Positions 1-53,291 of a stretch of DNA of 64,000 nucleotides are shown here, in pieces (the stretch's first letter is position 1; each line of letters starts with the position of its first letter). The notes below the pieces were generated by a model. That model was not told where the DNA came from. It saw only the letters and a program-made list of their open reading frames with translations, and ran no database searches. The position numbers were made by a program, and so were the translations under genes. The stretch comes from Escherichia phage T4_ev151, in sequence record LR597660. The stretch is one strand, 5' to 3'.

Positions 1-1889
1 TACTTCATCATAAAATCTAGTTCAGGATACTTGATAATTTTATCAATATATCGTTGAGCTGAACTTGAATAACCTACATACTTATCATAATCTACATCAT
101 CAAAAGCATCTACATATAAATCACGCAAAGCTTCAAAAATACATTGGCACTGACCGAGTTCTTTTACCTTTTTCTGTAAAAGCGGACGAATAACATAAAA
201 TTCATTAATGCCAATAAGATTAGCCATACGAATCAAAATATTCATAGATGGATGACAAAGTGATGTAGTACCATCCATAGAGAAAATATCAGAACGATGC
301 ATATACGCTACATAACCAGTAATTTCATCTGCTTCTGACGTAAGTGTAAATAATTCCTCTTTTTCCCAACGCCCATCTTTAATTTCAAACTTAAATGCTG
401 TAGCAGCTTTAGGACGAGGAGCTTTACTTTTAACTACCTTTGGAATATAGCTTTTAACTAAAGCTTCAATTTCTGACAAATAATGAATGTTAACTTCATC
501 ACTTTCAAACATTGCCATAATATCAGGTAGTAAATCAATCTGCGATTCTACTTCCGGATTAATAAACAGAAGACGCTCATTGTGATGAATATTTAAAGTG
601 TTATTAAATTCACTATCATCTAGCGCATGTGCTAATCCACGGACAATATTAACACGATTTTTAATATTATCAATAACGATATTAATTTTTGTTGTATTAA
701 TACCAAACAGACGATAACTTGACGCAACGGCTGATGTTTCATGACTTTGCTTAATGCGCTTCAGTCGAGGGTCAAGATTTACTTCATACACAACTCCTGC
801 ATTACATAACTTACTGTCAGGTTCAAACATGCTCTGCATTTTCTTATATGACAGATTTTTAGTCGTGAATTTGACTGAATTACTAATCATATAATCTCGA
901 GCAGAATGCCCCATCTTCATCAATTCACGATATGTGTGACGAGGAGATGTAGATTCTTTAAATCGTTTTACATCTTCATTAAATGCTTTCTCACTAAACT
1001 CTTTAACTCGTTCAATAATATTTTTACGAGTGCGATCATCTAATGAAAGAGCTTCACGTGATGGAGCAATATCAAGTGAACCCATTGGAAACTTAATGTA
1101 ATTCACTTCATTGCGGATGCTTAGCCAGTTACGGTCTCTAATAACACCATCGATAGGATAAACAATACCGCCATAGATAGCATATAATCCACCACGATCA
1201 GGCCAGTATCTTTCTGGATTTACACCGTAATAGTCATCAAAATCTGGAAAATAATCAATTTCGCGGTCAAGACCATTAATGATAGCCAAATCTTTGAATG
1301 GTCGCATGATATAAGAAACTTCATAAGCAAAGTTTCTAAAGTCTTTTTCTTCAACTGGAACTACGATTTCAATACCAGTTTTATCATCTGGACCCATTTC
1401 TTTTACGAATGTAGGTTTAATTTGTGGACCATCGCCATCCATGTAAGCTACATAACCACGAATTTCACCTTTATGATACGAAGTAATACTAAATGTATCA
1501 GTATAACTAAACGGAGATTTAGAACCTAAACCAAATCCGCCAATGAAATCGTTAGATTCAGCCTTAGATGAACTGAAATATGAATTATACAGACCAGGAG
1601 AATTATCATCACCCTGAATATCAAAATCACTCATACCCGGACCAAAATCTCGGCAAACAAATCGTGGATCTAAACGTCTAGGAACTTGAATGATAAATTT
1701 TTCAGGATTTCCATTGAGAGCATGGGCATCAATCATGTTGGTAATCAATTCACGGACTACTGCGCGAATTTTGTTTGTATACAAATCAGATGACAGAATT
1801 TTAAATACTTTAGGAGATGCTGTGATGCTAAATGCTTTTGATTTAGAACCATTGCCAAGAATAGTTTCTTTTTCAGCGGTGATAATCAT
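1..1889 (-). CDS. rIIA: rIIA protein, N-terminal 629 codons (3' end lies beyond window start)
   Basis: ATG at 1889 preceded by GAGGAAA RBS; frame open to position 1 (hence absent from ORF track); N-term [20 protein letters not shown] with GHKL-ATPase-like ELITNMIDA motif; lies next to gene 39 as in T4. Confidence 0.8.
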
Positions 1890-1899
1890 AATTTCCTCA

Positions 1900-2103
1900 T
1901 TAATTCATATTGCGTTTAATAACTTCAGCAACTTCTAGTAGTTCGTCTTTAGTTGCGGTGTCGGATTGAATTTTATCTCTAATATCTTTAAAGCGGTTTT
2001 TAAATTCTTCGGCTTCTCCCATATCGAAAAAGCGTTGAATGATTCTATATTCTCGATGAACTGCTTTATCAAAAAGTTCTAAATTTACTTTATATGATTT
2101 CAT
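1900..2103 (-). CDS. small hypothetical protein (rIIA.1 position)
   Basis: 67-aa ORF immediately upstream of rIIA, downstream of early promoter at 2129-2158. Confidence 0.5.
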
Positions 2104-2128
2104 TCCAATATCCTCATTTGCCCAATTA

Positions 2129-2158
2129 ATTATACCACATCCTTGTGGTAAAGTAAAC
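2129..2158 (-). promoter_or_regulatory. sigma70-type early promoter (-35 GTTTAC, 18-bp spacer, extended -10 TGTGGTATAAT) for rIIA.1/rIIA
   Basis: plus-strand attata 2129-2134 and gtaaac 2153-2158; 30-nt near-identical copy at 46104-46133. Confidence 0.6.
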
Positions 2159-3978
2159 TACTGGCTCATCCATTCTTTGCGAAGGTCAGCATTATCTCCC
2201 ATGAGCATTTCAAAAAGCTCTTTCCAGTTCTCAGGAAGTTTAACAACATCATATACTGGATTTTGAATCATCTCACGATATTCAGATTTTTCCAAAGAGC
2301 CAAGTCCTTTAATATAACGGATGCTATGTTTAGGTAGAGCATCTTTGGCACTCTCATATTCAGCGACTGTATAAAACCATTCTTGTTTTTTACCGACCTG
2401 AGCGATGATTACAGGAGTTTTGACAAAGCGAATTCGTCCTTGCTCAAACAGTTCTGGCCAATTACTAAAAAATCCAAGAAGAGAAGGATAAATGCTTCCT
2501 AGACCATCATGGTCAGCATCAGTCATAATAGCAATATTATGATAATTCAAGTTTTCAGCTTTTTCACCAAGAACTAATCCAGTGATTGCGCAAATATCAA
2601 ATAGTTCTTTATTTTTAAGCATATCAGCATATGACATACCCCAACTGTTGAGAACTTTACCACGCAATGGATAACCACCATGAAGTTCTTTATCACGAAC
2701 ATCAATAAGATATCCGATAGCAGAATCACCCTCAGTCAAGAAAAGAGTAGTATCAGCATCTTTACCGCAAAGATTCGCTTTGATATGTTTATGAACTTTA
2801 GCTTTAGAAGCCTTTTTAGCTGCTTTAGTTTCAGCTGCTTTTTCTGCTGCCAATTTACGAGCTAGTGCAGCTTCAATAATCGGCATTAAAATTGCTTCAT
2901 TATTTAGAATAGCGCGTGAAATCTTTTTAGCATCAAGCTGAATATGACTACGAATTTCACCAAATGGAGAAGTCAAACGCTCTTTAGTCTGAGAATCAAA
3001 TCGCATGTTTTTCATATCACGAACAAACATAACGATAGTCAAACATTCTTTAACACGTGCTTTAGTTACATCAATTTTGAACTTGCGCTTGATTTGTGGA
3101 ATAAGGTCTTCACAAATATCATCCATAACGCAGTCAATGTGATGGCCACCATTCTTAGTATGAATGTTATTGACGTATGTTAATTGACGAAAACCATCTG
3201 GTGAACGACCAACCGCAATAGAACAATTTTCTTGTTCTTGAACAATAGCATGCTCATCATATTGGCGTGCATATTTCTTAAAATTACCCTGAACCTTTTT
3301 ACCATTAAAGGTAAATTGAATATCAGGATAAACTACTGCAAGTGTCTGGAGACGATCTAGTGTAATGTCAAGATAAACTTGAGATAGCTCATTAGTTTCA
3401 AATGACATAAAATCAGGAATGAAAGTAACGCGAGTTCCTTTCCATTTTCCAGGAATAGTTTCCCAGGATTTATTTTCCATGCCATTTGAACAACGAACTA
3501 CAATATTATTTTGACCATCGCCAGTTTCACCGACAAACATCACAGAAAAAATGTTAGTTAAACTAGAACCAACACCATTCATACCACCGGTGACACGTTC
3601 TTTATCATCACCAAAGTTACCACCCGCTTTTGGAATAGTCCAAGCAGCAACTGGACCAGGAATTTCTTCACCGGTAGGTGTTTTAACCATCGCTTGTGGA
3701 ATACCACGACCGTTATCTTCAACTGTTACTTGATTGTTTTTGATAGTAACATTAATTTTATTTGCGAATTTAAACTTAGTACGAATACCTTCATCTACTG
3801 AGTTATCGATAATTTCATCAATAAGCTTAACAAGACCAGGTACATACTGAACACTTTCCCATTTACCAAACAGAAAGCGCTCATGCATTTCATTAGCAGA
3901 AGAGCCAATATACATGCCGCTACGCTTTTTGATATGTTCAATATCGCTCAGAATTTTAATTTCATTCTTAATCATCAC
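2158..3978 (-). CDS. 39: DNA topoisomerase II large (ATPase) subunit, uninterrupted 39+60 fusion
   Basis: 606 aa; GHKL motif IDNSVDEG; C-terminal third (IAIMTDADHDGLGSIYPSLLGFFSNWPELF...) is the segment encoded separately by gene 60 in T4; single continuous frame. Confidence 0.9.
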   Translation of the reverse strand: MMIKNEIKILSDIEHIKKRSGMYIGSSANEMHERFLFGKWESVQYVPGLVKLIDEIIDNSVDEGIRTKFKFANKINVTIKNNQVTVEDNGRGIPQAMVKTPTGEEIPGPVAAWTIPKAGGNFGDDKERVTGGMNGVGSSLTNIFSVMFVGETGDGQNNIVVRCSNGMENKSWETIPGKWKGTRVTFIPDFMSFETNELSQVYLDITLDRLQTLAVVYPDIQFTFNGKKVQGNFKKYARQYDEHAIVQEQENCSIAVGRSPDGFRQLTYVNNIHTKNGGHHIDCVMDDICEDLIPQIKRKFKIDVTKARVKECLTIVMFVRDMKNMRFDSQTKERLTSPFGEIRSHIQLDAKKISRAILNNEAILMPIIEAALARKLAAEKAAETKAAKKASKAKVHKHIKANLCGKDADTTLFLTEGDSAIGYLIDVRDKELHGGYPLRGKVLNSWGMSYADMLKNKELFDICAITGLVLGEKAENLNYHNIAIMTDADHDGLGSIYPSLLGFFSNWPELFEQGRIRFVKTPVIIAQVGKKQEWFYTVAEYESAKDALPKHSIRYIKGLGSLEKSEYREMIQNPVYDVVKLPENWKELFEMLMGDNADLRKEWMSQ

Positions 3979-4027
3979 TTATCCTCGTTTGGTTTCGGGA
4001 ATATTATACTCCGGTAATCATAAAGCT

Positions 4028-4045
4028 AAAGGCCCGAAGGCCTTT
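4028..4045 (-). terminator. GC hairpin with UUCG loop between 39.1-position ORF and gene 39
   Basis: aaggcccgaaggcctttt inverted repeat. Confidence 0.45.
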
Positions 4046-4314
4046 TATTTAAAACGAATAGTTGAATCCTTAAAGAACAGCCCAGAACATACTGTTCCTT
4101 CTACTTTCTGCCCAGTAGGTCCAACAGCACGAAATCCAGTATGTTGGAAATCATTTTCAGAGCAACCGAACCAGTTATATCCAGTGATTTCAATATTCGT
4201 AAAACCACTTGATGATAAAATTTTAGTTGCATTATCAGCATCAGTGCATCCTACTAAAGATACTGCTAATACTAATGCTGCGATAGAACGATTAACATAT
4301 TTCATAATTTTCAC
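4045..4314 (-). CDS. putative lipoprotein
   Basis: 89 aa; signal peptide with lipobox LVGC. Confidence 0.5.
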   Translation of the reverse strand: MKIMKYVNRSIAALVLAVSLVGCTDADNATKILSSSGFTNIEITGYNWFGCSENDFQHTGFRAVGPTGQKVEGTVCSGLFFKDSTIRFK

Positions 4315-4682
4315 TTAAATTTAATGGCTTGAAGGAGACTAATAATTCTTAAACGGCTTCTTTCATCTTTAACTGTAAAAGAAAGAGGGTCGCCAGATTT
4401 CATAGTAATAGTGCATTCAAAATCAAAATCTTCTGTGACTTCTTCGAAGAAGTCAAATTCTTCATCATAAATTAGAACATTACTCTGACAACTATGAAGA
4501 ATTTTTCCATCATTTCCAGATGCTGTACTAATCATTATAACATTATGACCTTTCATATCTTCAACGATAAATTCACTAGTCAATATTACAGCATTAATAG
4601 AACTATTCCTATTACTAGCAGAAAGTAGATATTTCTGTTCTTCACCTTCACGAATGCAATATTTCTTACCGATTTTAAACAT
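4311..4682 (-). CDS. hypothetical protein
   Basis: 123-aa ORF, ATGA overlap with downstream gene. Confidence 0.45.
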   Translation of the reverse strand: MFKIGKKYCIREGEEQKYLLSASNRNSSINAVILTSEFIVEDMKGHNVIMISTASGNDGKILHSCQSNVLIYDEEFDFFEEVTEDFDFECTITMKSGDPLSFTVKDERSRLRIISLLQAIKFK

Positions 4683-4684
4683 AA

Positions 4685-4861
4685 TTACCCTTTAAGTAAG
4701 TCGTAAAAACCACCATTCACATGCTTAGGAGCAGAAGGCCGACGAGTAGACAAACGATGACATTTAGGGCAAACATCATTTTCTCGTTCAGAAATCTTTT
4801 TAATTTTTTCATATTCATGCCCGCAATCTTCGGATTGGCATTTATAATCATACATTGGCAT
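4685..4861 (-). CDS. small zinc-ribbon protein (CxxC...CxxC), below ORF-track size cut-off
   Basis: my translation MPMYDYKCQSEDCGHEYEKIKKISERENDVCPKCHRLSTRRPSAPKHVNGGFYDLLKG; fills gap between flanking genes. Confidence 0.45.
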   Translation of the reverse strand: MPMYDYKCQSEDCGHEYEKIKKISERENDVCPKCHRLSTRRPSAPKHVNGGFYDLLKG

Positions 4862-14806: not shown

Positions 14807-15043
14807 TTAACCACCTATTTCTGTAGGCGTAAACATTGCAGCATTCTTAGTTTTCCAAGTTGCTGCATCGGAAACTACATCAGAATAAGCTGCTTTTTCT
14901 GACGGAAAGATTTGATAATGAGAATCTGCAATACGATGCTCGTTAGAATAGATTTCAAACGGAACAGAAACTTCCATACCTTTAACTTCTTTGCCTTCAC
15001 CTGCTGGATGAGTAAAGGTCTTGATGTTAACGAAACCACCCAT
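14807..15043 (-). CDS. soc: small outer capsid protein Soc
   Basis: 78 aa; GFVNIKTF and FPSEKAAYS motifs; late promoter upstream and terminator downstream. Confidence 0.7.
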   Translation of the reverse strand: MGGFVNIKTFTHPAGEGKEVKGMEVSVPFEIYSNEHRIADSHYQIFPSEKAAYSDVVSDAATWKTKNAAMFTPTEIGG

Positions 15044-15075
15044 AATAAACTCCTTTATTGTTTAATTACAGGTGT

Positions 15076-15083
15076 ATTTATAA
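15076..15083 (-). promoter_or_regulatory. late promoter TATAAATA upstream of soc
   Basis: plus-strand tatttata 33 nt upstream of soc ATG. Confidence 0.55.
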
Positions 15084-15224
15084 CTTACAATTTAGCGGCT
15101 TTCCAGAGTTGTTCAATAATCTCTTGGTCTATTTCTTTAGTTATTTCATTACGTAATAAAGCAGTAAGGGCTTTCGCCCTTTTCTTATTCAACTTTTTGA
15201 GTTGACGTTTATTTAAACGAGACA

Positions 15225-15743
15225 TTAATAACCTCGGTCCTGACGAGCAAAGTTCTCGGCATTTTTCAGATAATAAAGTTTAAAGATTTCTTCTGCTGTA
15301 AGACCAAGACCTTGGAACATGTTCAGAACGAAATGGAGAATATCAATCATTTCAAACTTAATTTCCAGTTGGTCTTGTGGAGACAAATCAGTAATCAGAG
15401 TTTCACGACGTTCACCATGCTGCGACTTCCAAGGTTTCCATACAGCAGATGCGTCTTTTTCACCATTACTCATACCACCAAGAGAAGTCAGAAGTTCACG
15501 GAATTCATCATCAATATAATCTTTCTGATTGCGCAGCCAATCAACAACTTCACCTGCAGTAGCCAAATCATCAGGATGACGGTTATATTCAGGTTTATCT
15601 TTAGCTAAACGAACCTGTAAAGATTTCTGCATATCAAGCATAACTTGCAGCGGGTCTTTTTCATCACCGAGAATATCCCAATATTCATTTTGAGCTTTAT
15701 CAGCGCCTTCAATCAGTTGTGAACATTCGTTAAAGTAAGCCAT
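15225..15743 (-). CDS. 56: dCTP pyrophosphatase (MazG-like)
   Basis: 171 aa from MAYFNECSQL; track ORF extends upstream with no RBS; position between soc and 61. Confidence 0.75.
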   Translation of the reverse strand: MAYFNECSQLIEGADKAQNEYWDILGDEKDPLQVMLDMQKSLQVRLAKDKPEYNRHPDDLATAGEVVDWLRNQKDYIDDEFRELLTSLGGMSNGEKDASAVWKPWKSQHGERRETLITDLSPQDQLEIKFEMIDILHFVLNMFQGLGLTAEEIFKLYYLKNAENFARQDRGY

Positions 15744-20231: not shown

Positions 20232-21387
20232 TTAACTGATCTAGGTCAGTTTCTAAATCAGCTGCTGATTTACTTTTACTTTCTGGAGATTTAAATTTTT
20301 CAACCTTTGAGTTAATCAATTCATCAACTTCAGCTTCAACAATTTCATTACTATCAATAGCACCTAACTGATAAGCACGTTTAATAGCATCTCGGAATGG
20401 TTGATGCTTAAATAAAGGACCCCAGAATGTAGTGCAATTGGTATCTTTTGCACGCCAAGATTTTTCTTCGCGAATCATCTCGCCGGTTTCTTCATCAAGA
20501 AATTCACGAGCATACCAGCCATTTTTAGGTTTTACCACAAATCCTAATTCAAGAGCCATATCTAACAATCCAGAATAAGGATCGATGCCACCGTCAAATT
20601 TAACATCAATAAAGAATTTACTTTTTTCTTTAACGGTACGAGATTTTTCTACATTTAGAACAAATTGATACCCCTGAAGATCAGAACCATCTTTAATCTG
20701 GCGCTTACCGATAATGAATACAGTATCAGCCGAATACATTACGCCTGTACCACCTGTCATCACGGTTTTACTAAACATTTCAATTGTTTCAATTGTATGG
20801 TTAACCGCAACACATGGAATGTTTTTAATACTAAAATAAGGAGTAACAATACGGAATAATGACTTCAGTGATTTAGCACGAGTCATATCTGCCACAGATT
20901 TTTCATTCAAGGCATCTTCCGTTTCTTTCTTAGAAGCCATATTACCAATTGAGTCGATGAATACTATAACCTTTTCACCACGCTCAATAGCTTCAAGCTG
21001 ATTCACCATATCAATTTTCAGCTGTTCAACTGATTGAATTGGCGTATGAATTACACGTTCCGGGTCAACTCCCATGGATCGCAAATAAGCTGGAGTAATA
21101 CCAAATTCGCTATCATAGAATAGACAAACCGCGTCAGGATATTTGTTCAAATATGCCGCAACCATAGTCAAAGACATATTTGATTTAAAGTGTTTAGAAG
21201 GCCCTGCGAAAATAGTTAAACCAGACTGCATACCGCCATCAATCGCACCAGAAATAGCAATATTAAGCATTGGAATTTTTGTACGAATTACATCCTTTTC
21301 ATTAAAGAATTTAGATGTAGTCAGTTCAGCAGTCATTTTAGAAGTGGAAGCTTTAATCAAACGGGATTTTAAATCTGCAATAGACAT
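20206..21387 (-). CDS. uvsX: UvsX recombinase (RecA-like)
   Basis: 393 aa; Walker A GPSKHFKS; acidic C-terminal tail. Confidence 0.9.
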   Translation of the reverse strand: MSIADLKSRLIKASTSKMTAELTTSKFFNEKDVIRTKIPMLNIAISGAIDGGMQSGLTIFAGPSKHFKSNMSLTMVAAYLNKYPDAVCLFYDSEFGITPAYLRSMGVDPERVIHTPIQSVEQLKIDMVNQLEAIERGEKVIVFIDSIGNMASKKETEDALNEKSVADMTRAKSLKSLFRIVTPYFSIKNIPCVAVNHTIETIEMFSKTVMTGGTGVMYSADTVFIIGKRQIKDGSDLQGYQFVLNVEKSRTVKEKSKFFIDVKFDGGIDPYSGLLDMALELGFVVKPKNGWYAREFLDEETGEMIREEKSWRAKDTNCTTFWGPLFKHQPFRDAIKRAYQLGAIDSNEIVEAEVDELINSKVEKFKSPESKSKSAADLETDLDQLSDMEEFNE

Positions 21388-21464
21388 TCATTTTTTCCAT
21401 AGGCATCATTATATTTTCCTCACTGGTTAAAGATAGAGTAATTATAACACAATAAATTTAGGCA

Positions 21465-22313
21465 TTAATCAACTGCTATTGGATGAATAGCATTAAACTT
21501 ATGAAATGCTTCTGATTTTTCTTTACGCGAAACGCACATGCGAAGAACCTTTAATGGCTCGTCTTCTTCACCCAACGATTTTCGTTTTTCAATATTAGAA
21601 GTTTTCCAACGAGCTTGCTCTGGAAACTCTCTATTGATTTGCTCAAGCGCTCTATTATGTTTAGAATTACTACGAATTGAACTACACCCGCCAGGAGCTT
21701 GTGCTTTTCCAGATACAACTAGATATTTGAACAAGGCCAAATGCGGATAACCTTGATTAATTAAATTGAGAAATGCATACATATCTTCGCATAAATCAAT
21801 TTTTCCATACCCAATTTGTTCTGTCGTAAGTTTTCCGAGGTCATACCATGTATTCGTGAATCCATATGAATTTTCACGATAATTACCCCAAGATGAAGTA
21901 ATTTTAAAAATTGGTAGACGAGCATGGCCATGATAATATCCGCAATCCATGGCATCCTCAACATATTGAATCAATTCATAGAACTGTTCACGAGTTAATT
22001 GATTAATTTTATCTACGCGCCGTTTATCGTCTCTCTTTCGTATTGAACTCATACGGATAGTAGTATCATCGTCAATCATCCAGATTCGTTGACCTGCATA
22101 CATATCAGTAATTGCTTTACGAGTACCGGCAATTCCGTTTACATCATCAGGAATAGTTATAATTTTAGCTCTAGACCCATAGGCATCATAATAAGCTTTT
22201 TCTTCGTGTTCACGCACTACAATATGGGGTTCATAATCAGTCGGAAACATATCAAGGGCAGAAACTGCCCCTACACGTTGATAGCTTGGAATTACGAATT
22301 GAATCATTTCCAC
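21465..22313 (-). CDS. DxD-motif glycosyltransferase at the beta-gt locus
   Basis: 282 aa; WMIDDDTT DxD motif; sits between uvsX and 42; does not resemble T4 beta-gt N-terminus. Confidence 0.5.
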   Translation of the reverse strand: MEMIQFVIPSYQRVGAVSALDMFPTDYEPHIVVREHEEKAYYDAYGSRAKIITIPDDVNGIAGTRKAITDMYAGQRIWMIDDDTTIRMSSIRKRDDKRRVDKINQLTREQFYELIQYVEDAMDCGYYHGHARLPIFKITSSWGNYRENSYGFTNTWYDLGKLTTEQIGYGKIDLCEDMYAFLNLINQGYPHLALFKYLVVSGKAQAPGGCSSIRSNSKHNRALEQINREFPEQARWKTSNIEKRKSLGEEDEPLKVLRMCVSRKEKSEAFHKFNAIHPIAVD

Positions 22314-23044
22314 TCACCGTTATAATCTTTTTTCACAATATGAGTTTCACCAGTGTTCCACCAATGGTCAACTAAATAAAACTGATTTTCGTACACATGA
22401 AGACTTCCAACGTTCCATATAATAGAACCTGCTTTATATTGCCGCGATGGGTCGCCTGCATTCAAATCAGATACTAATTTATCTAGTACGTATTTTTGCC
22501 ATGCATAATCATTACGATAGCCTGCCCAGCAGTCATTGCTTCTCATATTAACAACTGCATTGACTTTCTTATCACGAATCAGGTACTGTACTGTATTAGT
22601 ACACATGAAATCTGACATACCATCTTTATTGTAGTCAAATTGCATGGATGGACGAGTATAAATCATGATACCACGTCGAGAATCAGGATTTTGACCAAGT
22701 TCAGCTAAACACATATCATACTGGGCATAGTTATCTTCTGACCAGATAGCCCAACCATAATTCGAGTTAATTTCACCTTTAGAAGATGCTACCTGCTGCC
22801 AAATCTTCGGTGTTTCACCTGGAATATCTTTAACAAACAGACTTTGAGACTTATACCATTCAAGTTCACGCTGAATGTATTCATCATTAAGAGCGCCAAA
22901 AATAAACGGTTCATCTGCTACAAATGATGCGCCAATAATTTCAATAGTTTTAACACCAGTTTTATCAATTACGAAATCTTTTTCCTTTAATGCAATTCCC
23001 AAATGAAGACGGATTTCTTCAACTGTCATAGAGTCACTAATCAT
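22304..23044 (-). CDS. 42: dCMP hydroxymethylase
   Basis: 246 aa; thymidylate-synthase-like fold. Confidence 0.9.
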   Translation of the reverse strand: MISDSMTVEEIRLHLGIALKEKDFVIDKTGVKTIEIIGASFVADEPFIFGALNDEYIQRELEWYKSQSLFVKDIPGETPKIWQQVASSKGEINSNYGWAIWSEDNYAQYDMCLAELGQNPDSRRGIMIYTRPSMQFDYNKDGMSDFMCTNTVQYLIRDKKVNAVVNMRSNDCWAGYRNDYAWQKYVLDKLVSDLNAGDPSRQYKAGSIIWNVGSLHVYENQFYLVDHWWNTGETHIVKKDYNGEWK

Positions 23045-33920: not shown

Positions 33921-35121
33921 ATTTTGTAATAATGTCAAACTGTTCTTTAAAGCAGAAGCTTGAATCTTGATGCTGATACAAAAATTCATATGCTTTTTCT
34001 CGCTCACGGTCATAAAGAGCTCGGTCAGATGACAGTTCTTTAATACGTTCAAATGTTGATTCCATATCATTTTCATCAAACCAAATGATACCGCTATCAT
34101 GCGAGGTCAAAGGAGTATTATCAACACGGAATTTTAAATTTTCGCCAGTAGATTTCCAAAATACCGGAATTGTTCCACATGCACCAAGCTCGAGATGAGT
34201 ATATTCTAAAGAGCGCTGTAGATATTTTTTATCCAACTTACTCAGCTGATAACCAAATCCGGATTTACTCATGCGTTCAAGCATTTCGCTATTTACATAA
34301 CGGTCAAGAATTTGCGTTGGCAAATTAGGAGCAATTTTAATTTGGTCTACTTGATGAAGACGATAATACTCATATGGAATTCCTTTTTCTTTAATAGGAA
34401 TGAACGCTGGAGAACGTTCCAGACCTTCCATAATAGTACTTAGTCCTGCAGGTTTAAGATGTTTTTCGTGAAAATCAAACATCTGATAAAAACCTTTCCA
34501 TGTAGTCGTACGACCAATCCAACGGTTGATATTCATGTTAATTTCAGAAACATCTTTCCAGTAGGTTGATCGAACCTTCGCAATATCCATAGGAGGCTGA
34601 AAGTTATATACGGTCGGTGCTTCTTCAATATCATCAAACAGAGAAACAGTTTCCGGATACCATTCTTTCATCAGAACTTTATTAAAATCACCATTATCAG
34701 AATGGCTAAAAATAACATCAGCTCGACGAACAGTTTCTTCTAATCCCAAATTTCGACGCAAAGAAAGAGAAGAATGGTCATGTTGATAAACTACAACACG
34801 AACCGAAGGTTTAATGTTATCAATAATTTTTTTATAGTTATTAATAGTGTCTTCTTCAACCGAAGTAGCAGGAACTGAATTGATAATTAGAATATCACAA
34901 TCATTTACCAGCTTAAGTGTTTTATCATATTCTTTTGCCAATAAAACCGGAATTGAAAATGATTTATAATCATGCGCGCAATTACGAGTAAATGATTTAT
35001 CTTTAGCATAAACCAAAGTTACTTCATGACCATTCTTAATAAACCAATCACGTTGCTCAAGAGAAAATTTAGTTACACCACAACCTTCAAGACCTCGAGC
35101 CATAAAAATACATACTTTCAT
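33919..35121 (-). CDS. agt: DNA alpha-glucosyltransferase
   Basis: 400 aa; N-term MKVCIFMARGLEGCGVTKFSLEQRDWFIKNGHEV. Confidence 0.85.
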   Translation of the reverse strand: MKVCIFMARGLEGCGVTKFSLEQRDWFIKNGHEVTLVYAKDKSFTRNCAHDYKSFSIPVLLAKEYDKTLKLVNDCDILIINSVPATSVEEDTINNYKKIIDNIKPSVRVVVYQHDHSSLSLRRNLGLEETVRRADVIFSHSDNGDFNKVLMKEWYPETVSLFDDIEEAPTVYNFQPPMDIAKVRSTYWKDVSEINMNINRWIGRTTTWKGFYQMFDFHEKHLKPAGLSTIMEGLERSPAFIPIKEKGIPYEYYRLHQVDQIKIAPNLPTQILDRYVNSEMLERMSKSGFGYQLSKLDKKYLQRSLEYTHLELGACGTIPVFWKSTGENLKFRVDNTPLTSHDSGIIWFDENDMESTFERIKELSSDRALYDREREKAYEFLYQHQDSSFCFKEQFDIITK

Positions 35122-35171
35122 TTAATATCCTCTTTGTTTTGGTTTATTTTACCAAAAATTTATAAAGCAAT

Positions 35172-39163: not shown

Positions 39164-39634
39164 TTAATCATGTTTCCACACCCCATCGGTATTTGACCAA
39201 AGTCGCTGATTATCTGATCCTCGCCACAGCTTTTTAGTCGGAAGATTTTTCTCATACTTCCCATCAATAATAACATCAACATATTTAAGCATTTCTAGTT
39301 GTTTAATATCTTCAAACTTATATCCTGTCCACAACCAAATGCTTTTATTGGGATAAAGATTTTTTACTGTTTGAACAATGCAATGAATAACATCTCGATT
39401 GTCAGGATAGAGAGGGTCTCCTCCAGTTATAGTCAATCCTTCTATATAATCATTATTCAAACATTCAATTAATTGCTCTAGTGTTTCGCCAGTGAATGGA
39501 ATACCATTTCTAGCATTCCATGTTGATTTATTATAACACCCTTCACATTTATGCAAACAACCTGTAACGAAAAGAACGACCCTGCAACCAGGGCCATTCA
39601 CAAAATCGCAAGGATAAAATCTATCATAATTCAT
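39164..39634 (-). CDS. nrdG: anaerobic ribonucleotide reductase activating protein (radical SAM)
   Basis: 156 aa; Cys cluster CLHKCEGC. Confidence 0.85.
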   Translation of the reverse strand: MNYDRFYPCDFVNGPGCRVVLFVTGCLHKCEGCYNKSTWNARNGIPFTGETLEQLIECLNNDYIEGLTITGGDPLYPDNRDVIHCIVQTVKNLYPNKSIWLWTGYKFEDIKQLEMLKYVDVIIDGKYEKNLPTKKLWRGSDNQRLWSNTDGVWKHD

Positions 39635-41448
39635 TGGTGTTTAACCCTATGCATGATTTCTTTGTTTTTACCGAGATTAAATCCGCGTTCGTTCGGATTT
39701 CCCAAATAACCACATGTTCTTCTTATGGTATTCATCTTTTTAGGATCAGTTTCTCCACAAATAGAACAAACAAATCCGTTTTCAGTAGGAGTCATTTCAT
39801 GGGTACTTCCACATGTAAAACATTTATCTACCGGCATGTTAACACCAAAATAATCTAAATGTTGTGCAGCATAATCCCATACGGCCTCAAGGCCTTTTAA
39901 GTTATTTTTCATATCAGGAAGTTCAACATAAGAAATGTGACCACCTGTCGCAATGAAATGATATGGCGCTTCACGAGAAATCTTTTCAAACGGAGTAATA
40001 TTTTCTTCTACTGAAACATGGAAACTGTTAGTGTACCAACCTTTATCGGTAACATCTTTTACGCTTCCATATTTTTCTGTATCTAGTTTACAGAAGCGAT
40101 AACAAAGGTTTTCAGCAGGAGTCGAATATAAACTAAAAGCAAATCCGGTTCTTTCAGTCCACTGTTTAAGATGAGCATTCATTTTAGTTAAAATTTCCTG
40201 TCCAATATCACGACCGACAAGAATATTCAATTCGTGAATACCAATGTATCCTAAAGACACTGAACTTCTGCCGTTTTTAAATAACTCAATTATATCGTCA
40301 TCAGGTTTAAGACGAACCCCGAATGCACCTTCTTGGTAAAGAATAGGAGCAACAGTCGCTTTAACTCCTTTTAAGGAACTAATTCTACACATCAAAGCTT
40401 CAAAACATAAATCCATTCGTTCATTGAACAATTCAACAAATTTCTGTTCATTGAACTGTGTTCCAATATAAGAATCTAACGCGATGCGAGGAAGATTCAG
40501 TGTTACAACACCAAGATTATTACGTCCATCAAGAATTTCATTACCAGTCGAATCTTTCCATACGCTCAAGAAACTACGGCAACCCATTGGAGAAACAGGA
40601 ACAGATGAACCAGTGATAGCTTTATTGTTCTTAGCTGAAATAATATCAGGATACATCCTTTTGCTTGCACACTCTAGAGCAAGCTGCTTAATATCATAGT
40701 TCGGATCGTCTTTGTAAAGATTAACGCCTTCTTCGACGAACATAACAAGCTTAGGAAAAATAGGAGTTATCCCATCACGACCGAGACCTTTAATACGATT
40801 TTTCAGAATTGCTTTCTGAATCATTCGTTCAGTCCAGTCAGTTCCCGTACCAAATGTAATTGTTACAAAAGGAGTTTGTCCGTTTGAACTAAAGAGAGTA
40901 TTTACTTCATATTCATAAGCTTGGAATGCATCGTATACGTCTTTTTCTGTTTTAGATTGAGCATAATTCAACGCATCGGCGATTTGCCATTTTTCTGCAT
41001 CCTCAATATGTTTTGCATAGGTGCGTTTAACATAAGGAGAAAGTACTTTATCTACATTAGCAAAAGTCGTTCCGCCATATTGGTGAGAAGCAACCTGTGC
41101 AGTAATTTGTGCCATAATTGCAGTAGCAACACCGATTGATTTAGGAGTTTCAATCTGCGCATTACCAAGCTTAAATCCGTTCTCAAGCATTCCTTTTAAA
41201 TCTACTAAACAGCAATTAGTAAATGGAAGAGCAGGGGAATAATCAATATCATGGAAATGGATAATTCCGCTTTCATGCGCTTTCATAATAAAAGACGGGA
41301 CCATATTTTTGGCAATGTGTTTAGACACAATACCAGCCATAAGGTCCCGTTGAGTTGGAAAAACACGAGAATCTTTATTAGCATTCTCGTTTAAAAGGTC
41401 TTTATTAGTTTTATGAATCAATCCTTCAATTTCTTTTTCAATTGTCAT
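39631..41448 (-). CDS. nrdD: anaerobic ribonucleoside-triphosphate reductase
   Basis: 605 aa; C-terminal glycyl radical motif RTCGYLG and Zn ribbon CFTCG...CSICG; continuous frame. Confidence 0.9.
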   Translation of the reverse strand: MTIEKEIEGLIHKTNKDLLNENANKDSRVFPTQRDLMAGIVSKHIAKNMVPSFIMKAHESGIIHFHDIDYSPALPFTNCCLVDLKGMLENGFKLGNAQIETPKSIGVATAIMAQITAQVASHQYGGTTFANVDKVLSPYVKRTYAKHIEDAEKWQIADALNYAQSKTEKDVYDAFQAYEYEVNTLFSSNGQTPFVTITFGTGTDWTERMIQKAILKNRIKGLGRDGITPIFPKLVMFVEEGVNLYKDDPNYDIKQLALECASKRMYPDIISAKNNKAITGSSVPVSPMGCRSFLSVWKDSTGNEILDGRNNLGVVTLNLPRIALDSYIGTQFNEQKFVELFNERMDLCFEALMCRISSLKGVKATVAPILYQEGAFGVRLKPDDDIIELFKNGRSSVSLGYIGIHELNILVGRDIGQEILTKMNAHLKQWTERTGFAFSLYSTPAENLCYRFCKLDTEKYGSVKDVTDKGWYTNSFHVSVEENITPFEKISREAPYHFIATGGHISYVELPDMKNNLKGLEAVWDYAAQHLDYFGVNMPVDKCFTCGSTHEMTPTENGFVCSICGETDPKKMNTIRRTCGYLGNPNERGFNLGKNKEIMHRVKHQ

Positions 41449-49496: not shown

Positions 49497-50216
49497 TTAG
49501 GATTCTTCTAAATGTCTTTTCTGAAAAGTTGATACCATACTACGATACGGTTCATTTGGATACCCGTGTTTTATAGCTTCCTTTGTAAATTTTCTCCATC
49601 CATATTTAGTTTCTTTCCAAAGCTCGAATAATTCATCTTCATATTGCCATATAGTTAAATGAGAACGCTTTGCAGCTTTAATTCCATTAATATGCTTTTC
49701 TTTTACTACAGGATTGCTTAGTTTCTTTTTAATAATATTACTAACTTTTCTAACAAAAACTGGGTCCTTATATCGTTGCGAAGTTTTTATTGAAGTGTTT
49801 AATTTAGCTTCCGGCGTGGATGTGACCTCTTTCATCTTTTTCTTCATATGCTGTATATGATTAGGATTTTTCCATAAATTTATAGAATGCTTTTTGCATT
49901 TTATCCTAGTTTCATCTGCAACCTTTCCTCCTTCACCCCCGTATGACAGGTTAACACAGTTTTTTCCATATTTCAATTTACCTGCCATGATATATAATAT
50001 TTCAGCTTGTACCATTTTATCATAATTATCAAAAACTTCTAAAACCGTTTTTGATAATATGTGGTCATTTGACACTTTTACACGTTCTATATAATTTCCA
50101 CTACCAACATACGAATCATTGATGTTATTAGTTATATGTCGACCATAATAATATTTCTTAATACCTGTCTTTAAATTTAATATTTCAGTTTTATAGATAG
50201 TAAAATATTTTTTCAT
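49497..50216 (-). CDS. possible free-standing GIY-YIG-like homing endonuclease
   Basis: 239 aa; N-terminal TIY...YYYGRH...YVGSG; basic C-terminal repeats resembling DNA-binding modules. Confidence 0.4.
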   Translation of the reverse strand: MKKYFTIYKTEILNLKTGIKKYYYGRHITNNINDSYVGSGNYIERVKVSNDHILSKTVLEVFDNYDKMVQAEILYIMAGKLKYGKNCVNLSYGGEGGKVADETRIKCKKHSINLWKNPNHIQHMKKKMKEVTSTPEAKLNTSIKTSQRYKDPVFVRKVSNIIKKKLSNPVVKEKHINGIKAAKRSHLTIWQYEDELFELWKETKYGWRKFTKEAIKHGYPNEPYRSMVSTFQKRHLEES

Positions 50217-52309: not shown

Positions 52310-52767
52310 TCAACCTTATATTCAATAACAGGACATACTTTAGCTTTACGAGCTTTTAAAAATTCAACAATAATCGATTTCTTGGGTTGAATAGGAGGTA
52401 AACCTTTATACGCCCTATCAATATTTTCTACGTGTAAAGCATAATCCTTTTTCCATTTATAATCTTTATATTTTTCACGCAAATGTGCAGGAATAACAAA
52501 TGAACCGATAATAAGTAAAACAACCAAAAGCGCAAGTATAAATGCCGATGGAAGAAGAGTCCATAAACTACCGAAAATAAGCCAACGTTGTAGGCTTTCT
52601 GCACAAATAATTGTTAGCCCTACGAGTATAGCACACCCAAAAATAGAAACGAAAAATGTAGGAATGGCAATAGACCAAAAATATGCGCATAGTGTCTTAG
52701 GTCGTTGCCATTCATCGTTAAACAATTTGAATAATTTATAGTGCCAAGAGTTTTCATTAATAATCAT
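52306..52767 (-). CDS. membrane protein
   Basis: 153 aa; 2-3 TM helices; ATGA overlap with nucleotidyltransferase gene. Confidence 0.5.
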   Translation of the reverse strand: MIINENSWHYKLFKLFNDEWQRPKTLCAYFWSIAIPTFFVSIFGCAILVGLTIICAESLQRWLIFGSLWTLLPSAFILALLVVLLIIGSFVIPAHLREKYKDYKWKKDYALHVENIDRAYKGLPPIQPKKSIIVEFLKARKAKVCPVIEYKVE

Positions 52768-52769
52768 AA

Positions 52770-53291
52770 CTATCCTTTCATTGAAGGCGTAACAGTTGTT
52801 AAATACTTAATCATAGCTTCAGCTTCTGATTTTGATAGTGAAATTTCTCCATTGTTTTGACGAATAGAAATAAAATCCGGATGACGGTCACCACCAGCTT
52901 TTAAAACACACATATAAGTATCAGTTTCATCTTCAATATCTGAAATGATTGAAGCAGTTCCACATGAATGTGGTTTTTGATAAATCAATACAGCTTTTCT
53001 TCCACCGTTTGACTGTTCATAAACTTTTAACACATCAAACAAATCACTTCTTTTATCAATAGCTAAAATGTTATTTTCATCTTCAATGTTAAATCCTTCG
53101 GATACTTCATAAAGTGTCACCCATAAATCGCCAATATCAATAACAGCGTTCACTTTTCCATGACTTTCAAGAGAATGACAAATTTTCTTGATTTCGTCAT
53201 AACTCATTTTAATAATATCATCTCCTTGAATAAGAAAGATGTCATTTTTAAATTCAACACGAATTAAACCACTTCCACTTGAAATAAACAT
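52770..53291 (-). CDS. hypothetical protein, paralog of 53298-53855
   Basis: 173 aa; C-terminal LSKSEAEAMIKYLTTVTPSM. Confidence 0.45.
   Translation of the reverse strand: MFISSGSGLIRVEFKNDIFLIQGDDIIKMSYDEIKKICHSLESHGKVNAVIDIGDLWVTLYEVSEGFNIEDENNILAIDKRSDLFDVLKVYEQSNGGRKAVLIYQKPHSCGTASIISDIEDETDTYMCVLKAGGDRHPDFISIRQNNGEISLSKSEAEAMIKYLTTVTPSMKG

Follow-up and report, generated by a model that had tools for sequence, protein, structure and literature searches.

It has been established for decades that phages T2 and T6 carry gene 39 in one piece, and the phage enzyme of which its product forms part relaxes DNA and does not supercoil it. The topoisomerases of T2 and T6 are composed of two subunits, that of T4 of three (Nat Commun 2024, PMC11461880). 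Several structures of the T6 topoisomerase II are available, including 8ylu and 8yo1, and 8ylu_C corresponds to T6 gp39 (Nat Commun 2024, PMC11461880).

Insertion of the MobA element (approximately 1.1 kb) deletes 64 nt and brings in a diverged copy of this segment (67–81% identical) together with a 50-nt bypass cassette; the element of the T4 clade covers 9 further nt past the gap (bioRxiv 10.1101/2022.08.31.505936). The T4 element of 1117 nt comprises a 43-aa tail of gp39, the mobA pseudogene, a head of gp60 of approximately 30 aa, a recoded copy of the target, and the GGA-UAG take-off with its hairpin and the 50-nt gap. A 2010 review lists mobA among the free-standing HNH endonucleases and names gene 39 as the target. 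Nicking of T2 by MobA has been demonstrated, as has the transfer of the cassette into T2, and 'parental' genomes that are free of MobA were found beside every clade that carries the element (bioRxiv 10.1101/2022.08.31.505936).

We analyzed a 64,000-nt stretch (the window) of the genome of Escherichia phage T4_ev151 (LR597660), which spans the equivalent of T4 positions 301 to about 68,800. Gene 52 of T4 maps near the opposite end of the genome, beyond the window. Our analysis leaves very little doubt that the window carries an ordinary one-piece Tequatrovirus gene 39, encoding the 605-aa ATPase/TOPRIM subunit of a type IIA topoisomerase, and that the MobA element either never settled in it or was replaced without a trace. 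No sequence evidence against a one-piece gene 39 was found, and as a full-length orthologue in a Tequatrovirus genome the frame is no product of chance.

Reading frame, start and neighbours of gene 39

The listing of open reading frames identified an uninterrupted frame on the minus strand (2158..3978), with 606 codons when counted from a GTG and no internal stops. This in-frame GTG (3976..3978, minus strand) lies one codon 5' of an ATG (3975..3973), and a Shine-Dalgarno-like GAGG (3983..3986, minus strand) is found 7 nt before the ATG and 4 nt before the GTG. As T4 gp39 and the annotated proteins of T2, T6 and phage teqdroes all begin at the ATG (MIKNEIK...), gene 39 almost certainly starts at position 3975 with a predicted product of 605 aa, and the GTG is probably not the start codon. 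The annotated genes of T2, T6 and teqdroes each measure 1818 nt (605 aa and the stop codon), and over the 50 nt that precede the gene 39 start the window and T4 do not differ. The original prediction of a 606-aa frame that runs through the T4 junction was therefore right about the uninterrupted frame and wrong about the length, as 606 is the length of the longest possible frame. The annotation to use is gene 39, topoisomerase II large subunit (GyrB/ParE-like), at 2158..3975 on the minus strand, with an ATG start and 605 aa.

The downstream neighbour is rIIA.1 (1900..2103, minus strand, 67 aa), in the gene order of T4, T2 and T6, and the upstream neighbour is a homologue of gene 39.1 (4045..4314, minus strand), an 89-codon open reading frame assigned to phrog_902. 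Around gene 39 the window has the T-even order rIIA, rIIA.1, 39, 39.1, 39.2, goF, cef, motB, dexA. The gene 39.1 homologue is annotated with 86 aa in teqdroes, T2 and T6, compared to 65 aa in T4, and by eye its N-terminus (…LAVSLVGC…) resembles the signal peptide of a lipoprotein, including a lipobox cysteine. Between 39.1 and 39.2 a 123-aa open reading frame is present (4311-4682, minus strand), which belongs to phrog_622 (function unknown) and shows weak similarity to goF-type families. T4 lacks a counterpart and has a spacer of approximately 106 nt instead; at this site T6 carries a 123-aa and T2 a 105-aa open reading frame.

Directly 3' of the gene 39 stop codon, and pointing to rIIA.1 and rIIA, we observed a sigma-70-like candidate promoter (2129-2157, minus strand) with TTTACT, a 17-nt spacer and TATAAT preceded by TG, which matches at 10 of 12 positions and is the best in the region. 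Promoter and terminator counts in 1850-4400 did not exceed those in shuffled sequence, and this site is a lead only.

The T4 split point and the 64-nt segment

Alignment of the open reading frame with the T4 proteins (blastp) is gap-free on both sides of the split. Residues 1–473 of T4 gp39 correspond to residues 2–474 (98.3% identity), and residues 27–160 of T4 gp60 to residues 473–606 (95.5% identity), both in the 606-codon numbering; the final 43 residues of T4 gp39 and the initial ~30 of gp60 are unmatched in the window. At the DNA level (blastn), window positions 4097-2558 align with T4 5450-3911 (96.2% identity) and 2493-1900 with T4 2793-2200 (98.1%). Between these segments the window contains only 64 nt (2557-2494) in place of the 1117 nt of T4 (3910-2794). 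The frame of the window runs through the T4 junction continuously, with no stop, frameshift or gap.

The 64-nt segment (2494..2557, minus strand; boundaries from blastn) is the 'empty site', the parental segment that is replaced by the MobA element in T4. It encodes ENLNYHNIAIMTDADHDGLGS, so that the junction is read in a single frame as ...GEKA ENLNYHNIAIMTDADHDG LGSIYPS..., and it is identical to the corresponding segment of T2 at 64 of 64 positions. The insert of T4 contains an internal 46-nt stretch (2899-2854) similar to window positions 2549-2504, with an identity of only 76%. The one-piece gene is parental and ancestral, and T4 the derived form: the T4 insert brought along a 76%-identical copy of the nucleotides that were replaced, and other type IIA topoisomerases, too, align with the predicted protein over this stretch as a single chain. 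The gene had been described beforehand as a 39+60 fusion, a label that we abandon, since the split in T4 derives from the insertion of the MobA element. The uninserted state that had been proposed with it is borne out by the contiguous frame, the exact 64-nt site and the absence of parts of the element.

At the position where the ribosome takes off in T4, the window reads GGT-CTA (2500..2505, minus strand), encoding Gly491-Leu492 in the 605-aa numbering, and T4 has GGA, the 50-nt gap and TTA. In T4, GAT GGA is followed by a gap of 50 nt that opens with UAG CCUUCGGGCUAUC and then by UUA GGU, whereas GAT GGT CTA GGA AGC is contiguous and in frame in the window. Just past the gap T4 has the 9 nt TTAGGTTCT, for which CTAGGAAGC stands in the window. 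Gene 39 of the window contains nine GGA codons, one of which lies two codons past the take-off glycine; this codon (Gly493 in the 605-aa numbering) is read as a normal glycine, and no stop, gap or hairpin adjoins it. The expectation that both the take-off and landing GGA codons and the hop hairpin would be missing was thus correct for the hairpin and for the take-off glycine, which is GGT, but has to allow for this one ordinary GGA.

The local 25-nt fold at the take-off position has a predicted energy of −2.6 kcal/mol, compared to −14.0 kcal/mol for the T4 take-off hairpin, and none of the 25-nt windows across the whole of gene 39 folds below −9.5 kcal/mol, which leaves no cryptic junction hairpin within the gene. 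An exact match to the take-off stem-loop (GGAUAGCCUUCGGGCUAUC) was not found on either strand of the 64 kb. Searches of the window with the 50-nt gap and its flanks (blastn, best E 0.22), with the intact MobA of T4T (272 aa; tblastn, best E 0.81), with the gp39 tail and the gp60 head (tblastn, best E 2.6 and 2.4, respectively) and with the whole T4 element (blastn) all returned matches at chance level only. Both absences that were originally predicted hold. The bypass element is missing, as there is no stop at the junction and no 50-nt gap or take-off hairpin there or elsewhere in the 64 kb, and so is mobA, for which tblastn gave no match beyond chance and the 64 nt leave no room where T4 has 1117 nt.

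The site at which MobA nicks is placed within the 64-nt segment, approximately 20 nt upstream of the point of gap insertion, roughly at window position 2523 (cited second-hand in bioRxiv 10.1101/2022.08.31.505936). From the T2-identical 64-nt site we predict that MobA could nick this genome, which would then act as the recipient in homing, if the phage met one with an intact mobA in a mixed infection. With its intact, T2-identical target the phage might be used as a naive recipient in experiments on homing or the evolution of bypassing. Taken alone the locus is of little importance, as earlier work has characterized the MobA cassette and catalogued 'parental' genomes.

Homing elements of T4 are scarce in this genome beyond gene 39 as well. 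None of segF, segA, mobB, mobC, mobD and I-TevII of T4 was detected at its T4 site (tblastn; intervals 14813-15262, 21376-22321, 35112-35137, 39614-39634, 40910-40913 and 52317-53273). The nrdD gene is intron-less, and neither a group I intron nor any other Rfam match or tRNA was found in the window.

Elsewhere in the window we observed a gene for a Seg-like homing endonuclease (49497..50216, minus strand, 239 aa), assigned to phrog_314 'homing endonuclease' (1.8e-30) and similar to T4 SegA (3e-10) and SegF (4e-07) in tblastn, with no Pfam match at E ≤ 0.01. It lies in an insertion of approximately 730 nt between the homologues of nrdC.9 and nrdC.10, where T4 has a short spacer only; this free-standing gene is absent from the same site in T4. 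Between uvsX and gene 42, a 282-aa open reading frame (21465..22313, minus strand) matches beta-glucosyl-HMC-alpha-glucosyltransferase (phrog_842, 5e-89; Pfam TAGT 3.3e-10). T4 carries segA and the beta-glucosyltransferase gene at this location, whereas the window carries a glucosyltransferase of the T2/T6 type. The b-gt gene of T4 is not detectable in the window and a-gt is present (33922-35121), which suggests a T2/T6-type (gentiobiosyl) glucosylation of the DNA.

Domains and predicted function of gp39

The predicted gp39 is 99.7% identical to that of T2 and 99.8% identical to that of T6, with no gaps. It differs from the T2 protein by two substitutions (F70L and T173D) and from the T6 protein by one (Q526H). 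The 1818-nt genes align without gaps at 96.4% DNA identity to T2 (65 differences) and 96.8% to T6 (58 differences), and the differences are mostly synonymous. No scars of an insertion were found in gene 39, with 0 gaps and 0 extra residues relative to T2 and T6. As 58–65 nucleotide differences translate into only one or two amino acid differences, the comparison indicates strong purifying selection on a gene that is probably active. It is scarcely conceivable that the frame is that of a pseudogene, open but encoding an inactive topoisomerase: this pattern of substitution contradicts it, every catalytic motif is intact, the ribosome-binding site and the upstream region are identical to those of T4, and no point in its support was found.

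Within the N-terminal part of the protein, Pfam identified HATPase_c (residues 48–150, 1.9e-09), followed by DNA_gyraseB (residues 251–385, 1.5e-13), and TOPRIM_C was found at the C-terminus (residues 520–605, 4.2e-07). The Pfam Toprim model gave no match at E ≤ 0.001. A motif search located the motifs of the GHKL (Bergerat) ATPase, EIIDNSVDE (54), DNGRGIP (87) and GGMNGVG (130), and the QTK loop of the transducer, QTKERL at residue 329. Both motifs of the TOPRIM fold were also located by motif search, EGDSA (aa 415–419; 2719..2733, minus strand) upstream of the T4 split point, and the acidic motif DADHDG (aa 486–491; 2503..2520, minus strand). The split in T4 falls within TOPRIM between these two motifs and leaves DADHDG on a separate polypeptide, the product of gene 60, and in the gp39 of the window EGDSA and DADHDG share one chain. 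The protein is thereby predicted to contain a complete TOPRIM on a single chain, where the core is assigned from the two motifs together with the end-to-end alignment to the structure of T6 gp39.

Immediately before the QTK loop, the gp39 of the T4 reference sequence (NC_000866) reads MRLIRQTKERL, compared to MRFDSQTKERL in the window, T2 and T4T. The change from FDS to LIR at codons 326–328 of T4 gene 39 corresponds to a 1-base deletion and a 1-base insertion in the T4 reference, 8 nt apart (CGATTGATTCGTCAA vs CGATTTGATTCTCAA; window about 2992-3000). An old sequencing error most likely accounts for this compensated −1/+1 frameshift pair in the T4 reference.

The best structural match is 8ylu_C, which aligns over residues 1–605 of both proteins (1388 bits). 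It is followed by the engineered T4 gp39-gp60 fusion 8yo3_C and then by eukaryotic topoisomerase II, ParE and GyrB. PHROGs assigned the protein to phrog_543 'DNA topoisomerase II large subunit' (1.6e-295). These matches place the predicted protein among the T-even topoisomerase II large subunits of the one-piece T2/T6 type (type IIA B subunit). Bacterial GyrB and ParE and the N-terminal half of eukaryotic topoisomerase II have the same one-chain order of GHKL ATPase, transducer, TOPRIM and C-terminal tail, but are distant in sequence, with matches over residues 5–603 at E values of 1e-36 to 1e-59.

ATP-dependent DNA relaxation has been demonstrated for the near-identical T6 enzyme (PMC11461880). 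For the present phage we infer the enzymatic activity, the pairing with gp52 and the sensitivity to MobA. By homology, the large subunit would assemble with gp52, the cleavage-religation subunit, into an A2B2 tetramer like those of T2 and T6, as compared to the hexamer of T4. The N-terminal GHKL domain would bind and hydrolyze ATP, its ATP-driven dimerization would capture a DNA segment, and the transducer with the QTK loop would couple ATP hydrolysis to the opening of the DNA gate. The Mg2+ ions used in cleavage by the gp52 tyrosine would be bound by the acidic residues of TOPRIM (EGDSA and DxDxD). As no MobA element is present, both TOPRIM motifs reside on the one chain and the gene would be translated without ribosomal bypassing.

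Distribution of the uninserted state and comparison with described phages

With a 124-nt probe across the junction, the contiguous arrangement was identified as a single match in 447 phage records. The T4 insert was found in 43 records, most of which are stocks or very near relatives of T4, so that the uninserted state is shared by approximately 91% of the sequenced relatives. The probe is 100% identical in Yersinia phage PYPS2T and Escherichia phage 303Ecol101PP. The region 1500-4700 matched 707 phage records, 490 of which at ≥ 95% identity; the latter are nearly all Tequatrovirus of Escherichia, Shigella, Yersinia, Salmonella and Citrobacter. At the locus the closest is Escherichia phage teqdroes, with a 99.0% identity that is even across 3.2 kb, and over the first 25 kb the best phage record is 96.3% identical. 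By its sequence the isolate appears to be a distinct T4-like phage that matches no record of the phage collection exactly. The uninserted gene 39 is already known and ordinary, and it is the commonest state in the genus: it is the rule, and the T4 split with its ribosome hop the exception.

The contiguous junction could in principle result from the assembly, either by collapse of a T4-type insertion or through a chimeric window. This is a generic possibility for which nothing specific speaks, and its chance is negligible, as the junction is found base-for-base in hundreds of independently sequenced phages, the identity to teqdroes is uniform over the 3.2 kb, and the correct 64-nt parental segment is beyond the invention of any assembler.

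In a secondary fusion ('hit and run'), the lineage would have passed through a T4-like state, with the MobA element and separate genes 39 and 60, before the element was lost and the two genes were rejoined. Such a history has a precedent in the re-fused genes that are documented in Aeromonas phages (bioRxiv 10.1101/2022.08.31.505936), and given the free recombination among T-even phages an exact swap for an uninvaded allele would leave no trace. The documented re-fusions, however, retain tail and head sequences of the element, neither of which was detected in the window (E > 2); in the re-fused Topo2L of Aeromonas clade 7 (2022 preprint) an insert derived from the extension is kept at the MobA site, and this insert is absent from the gp39 of the window. 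Moreover, the gene has no gaps relative to T2 and T6, its 64-nt site is that of T2, unlike the 76% copy of T4, the uninserted allele is the majority form, and the best matches (teqdroes, PYPS2T and Ozark) suggest a placement among uninserted genomes. We consider a secondary fusion extremely unlikely.

It is also very unlikely that the locus went through a full cycle of gain and loss, in which the MobA/bypass cassette invaded and the parental gene was then precisely restored by recombination with an uninvaded phage. If true, the clean empty site would be the record of a cycle of the homing element instead of a state that was never invaded, but no observation favours such a cycle over simple ancestry.

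We therefore return to the ordinary one-piece gene 39, at which the MobA element would never have settled or would have been replaced without a trace. Genes 39 and 60 of T4 encode the same enzyme as the gp39 described here, with flanks of 96–98% DNA identity. Gene 39 of T2 and T6 has the same length and start and the same order rIIA, rIIA.1, 39, 39.1, and the 64-nt target is identical to that of T2. The locus fits the 'parental' clade 1 Topo2L genomes exactly (bioRxiv 10.1101/2022.08.31.505936): it shows 96–99% identity to element-bearing relatives and has kept the 64-nt segment that is lost on insertion. The divergence of the 9 nt past the gap is likewise as described for these genomes, and no substantive difference from them was observed.
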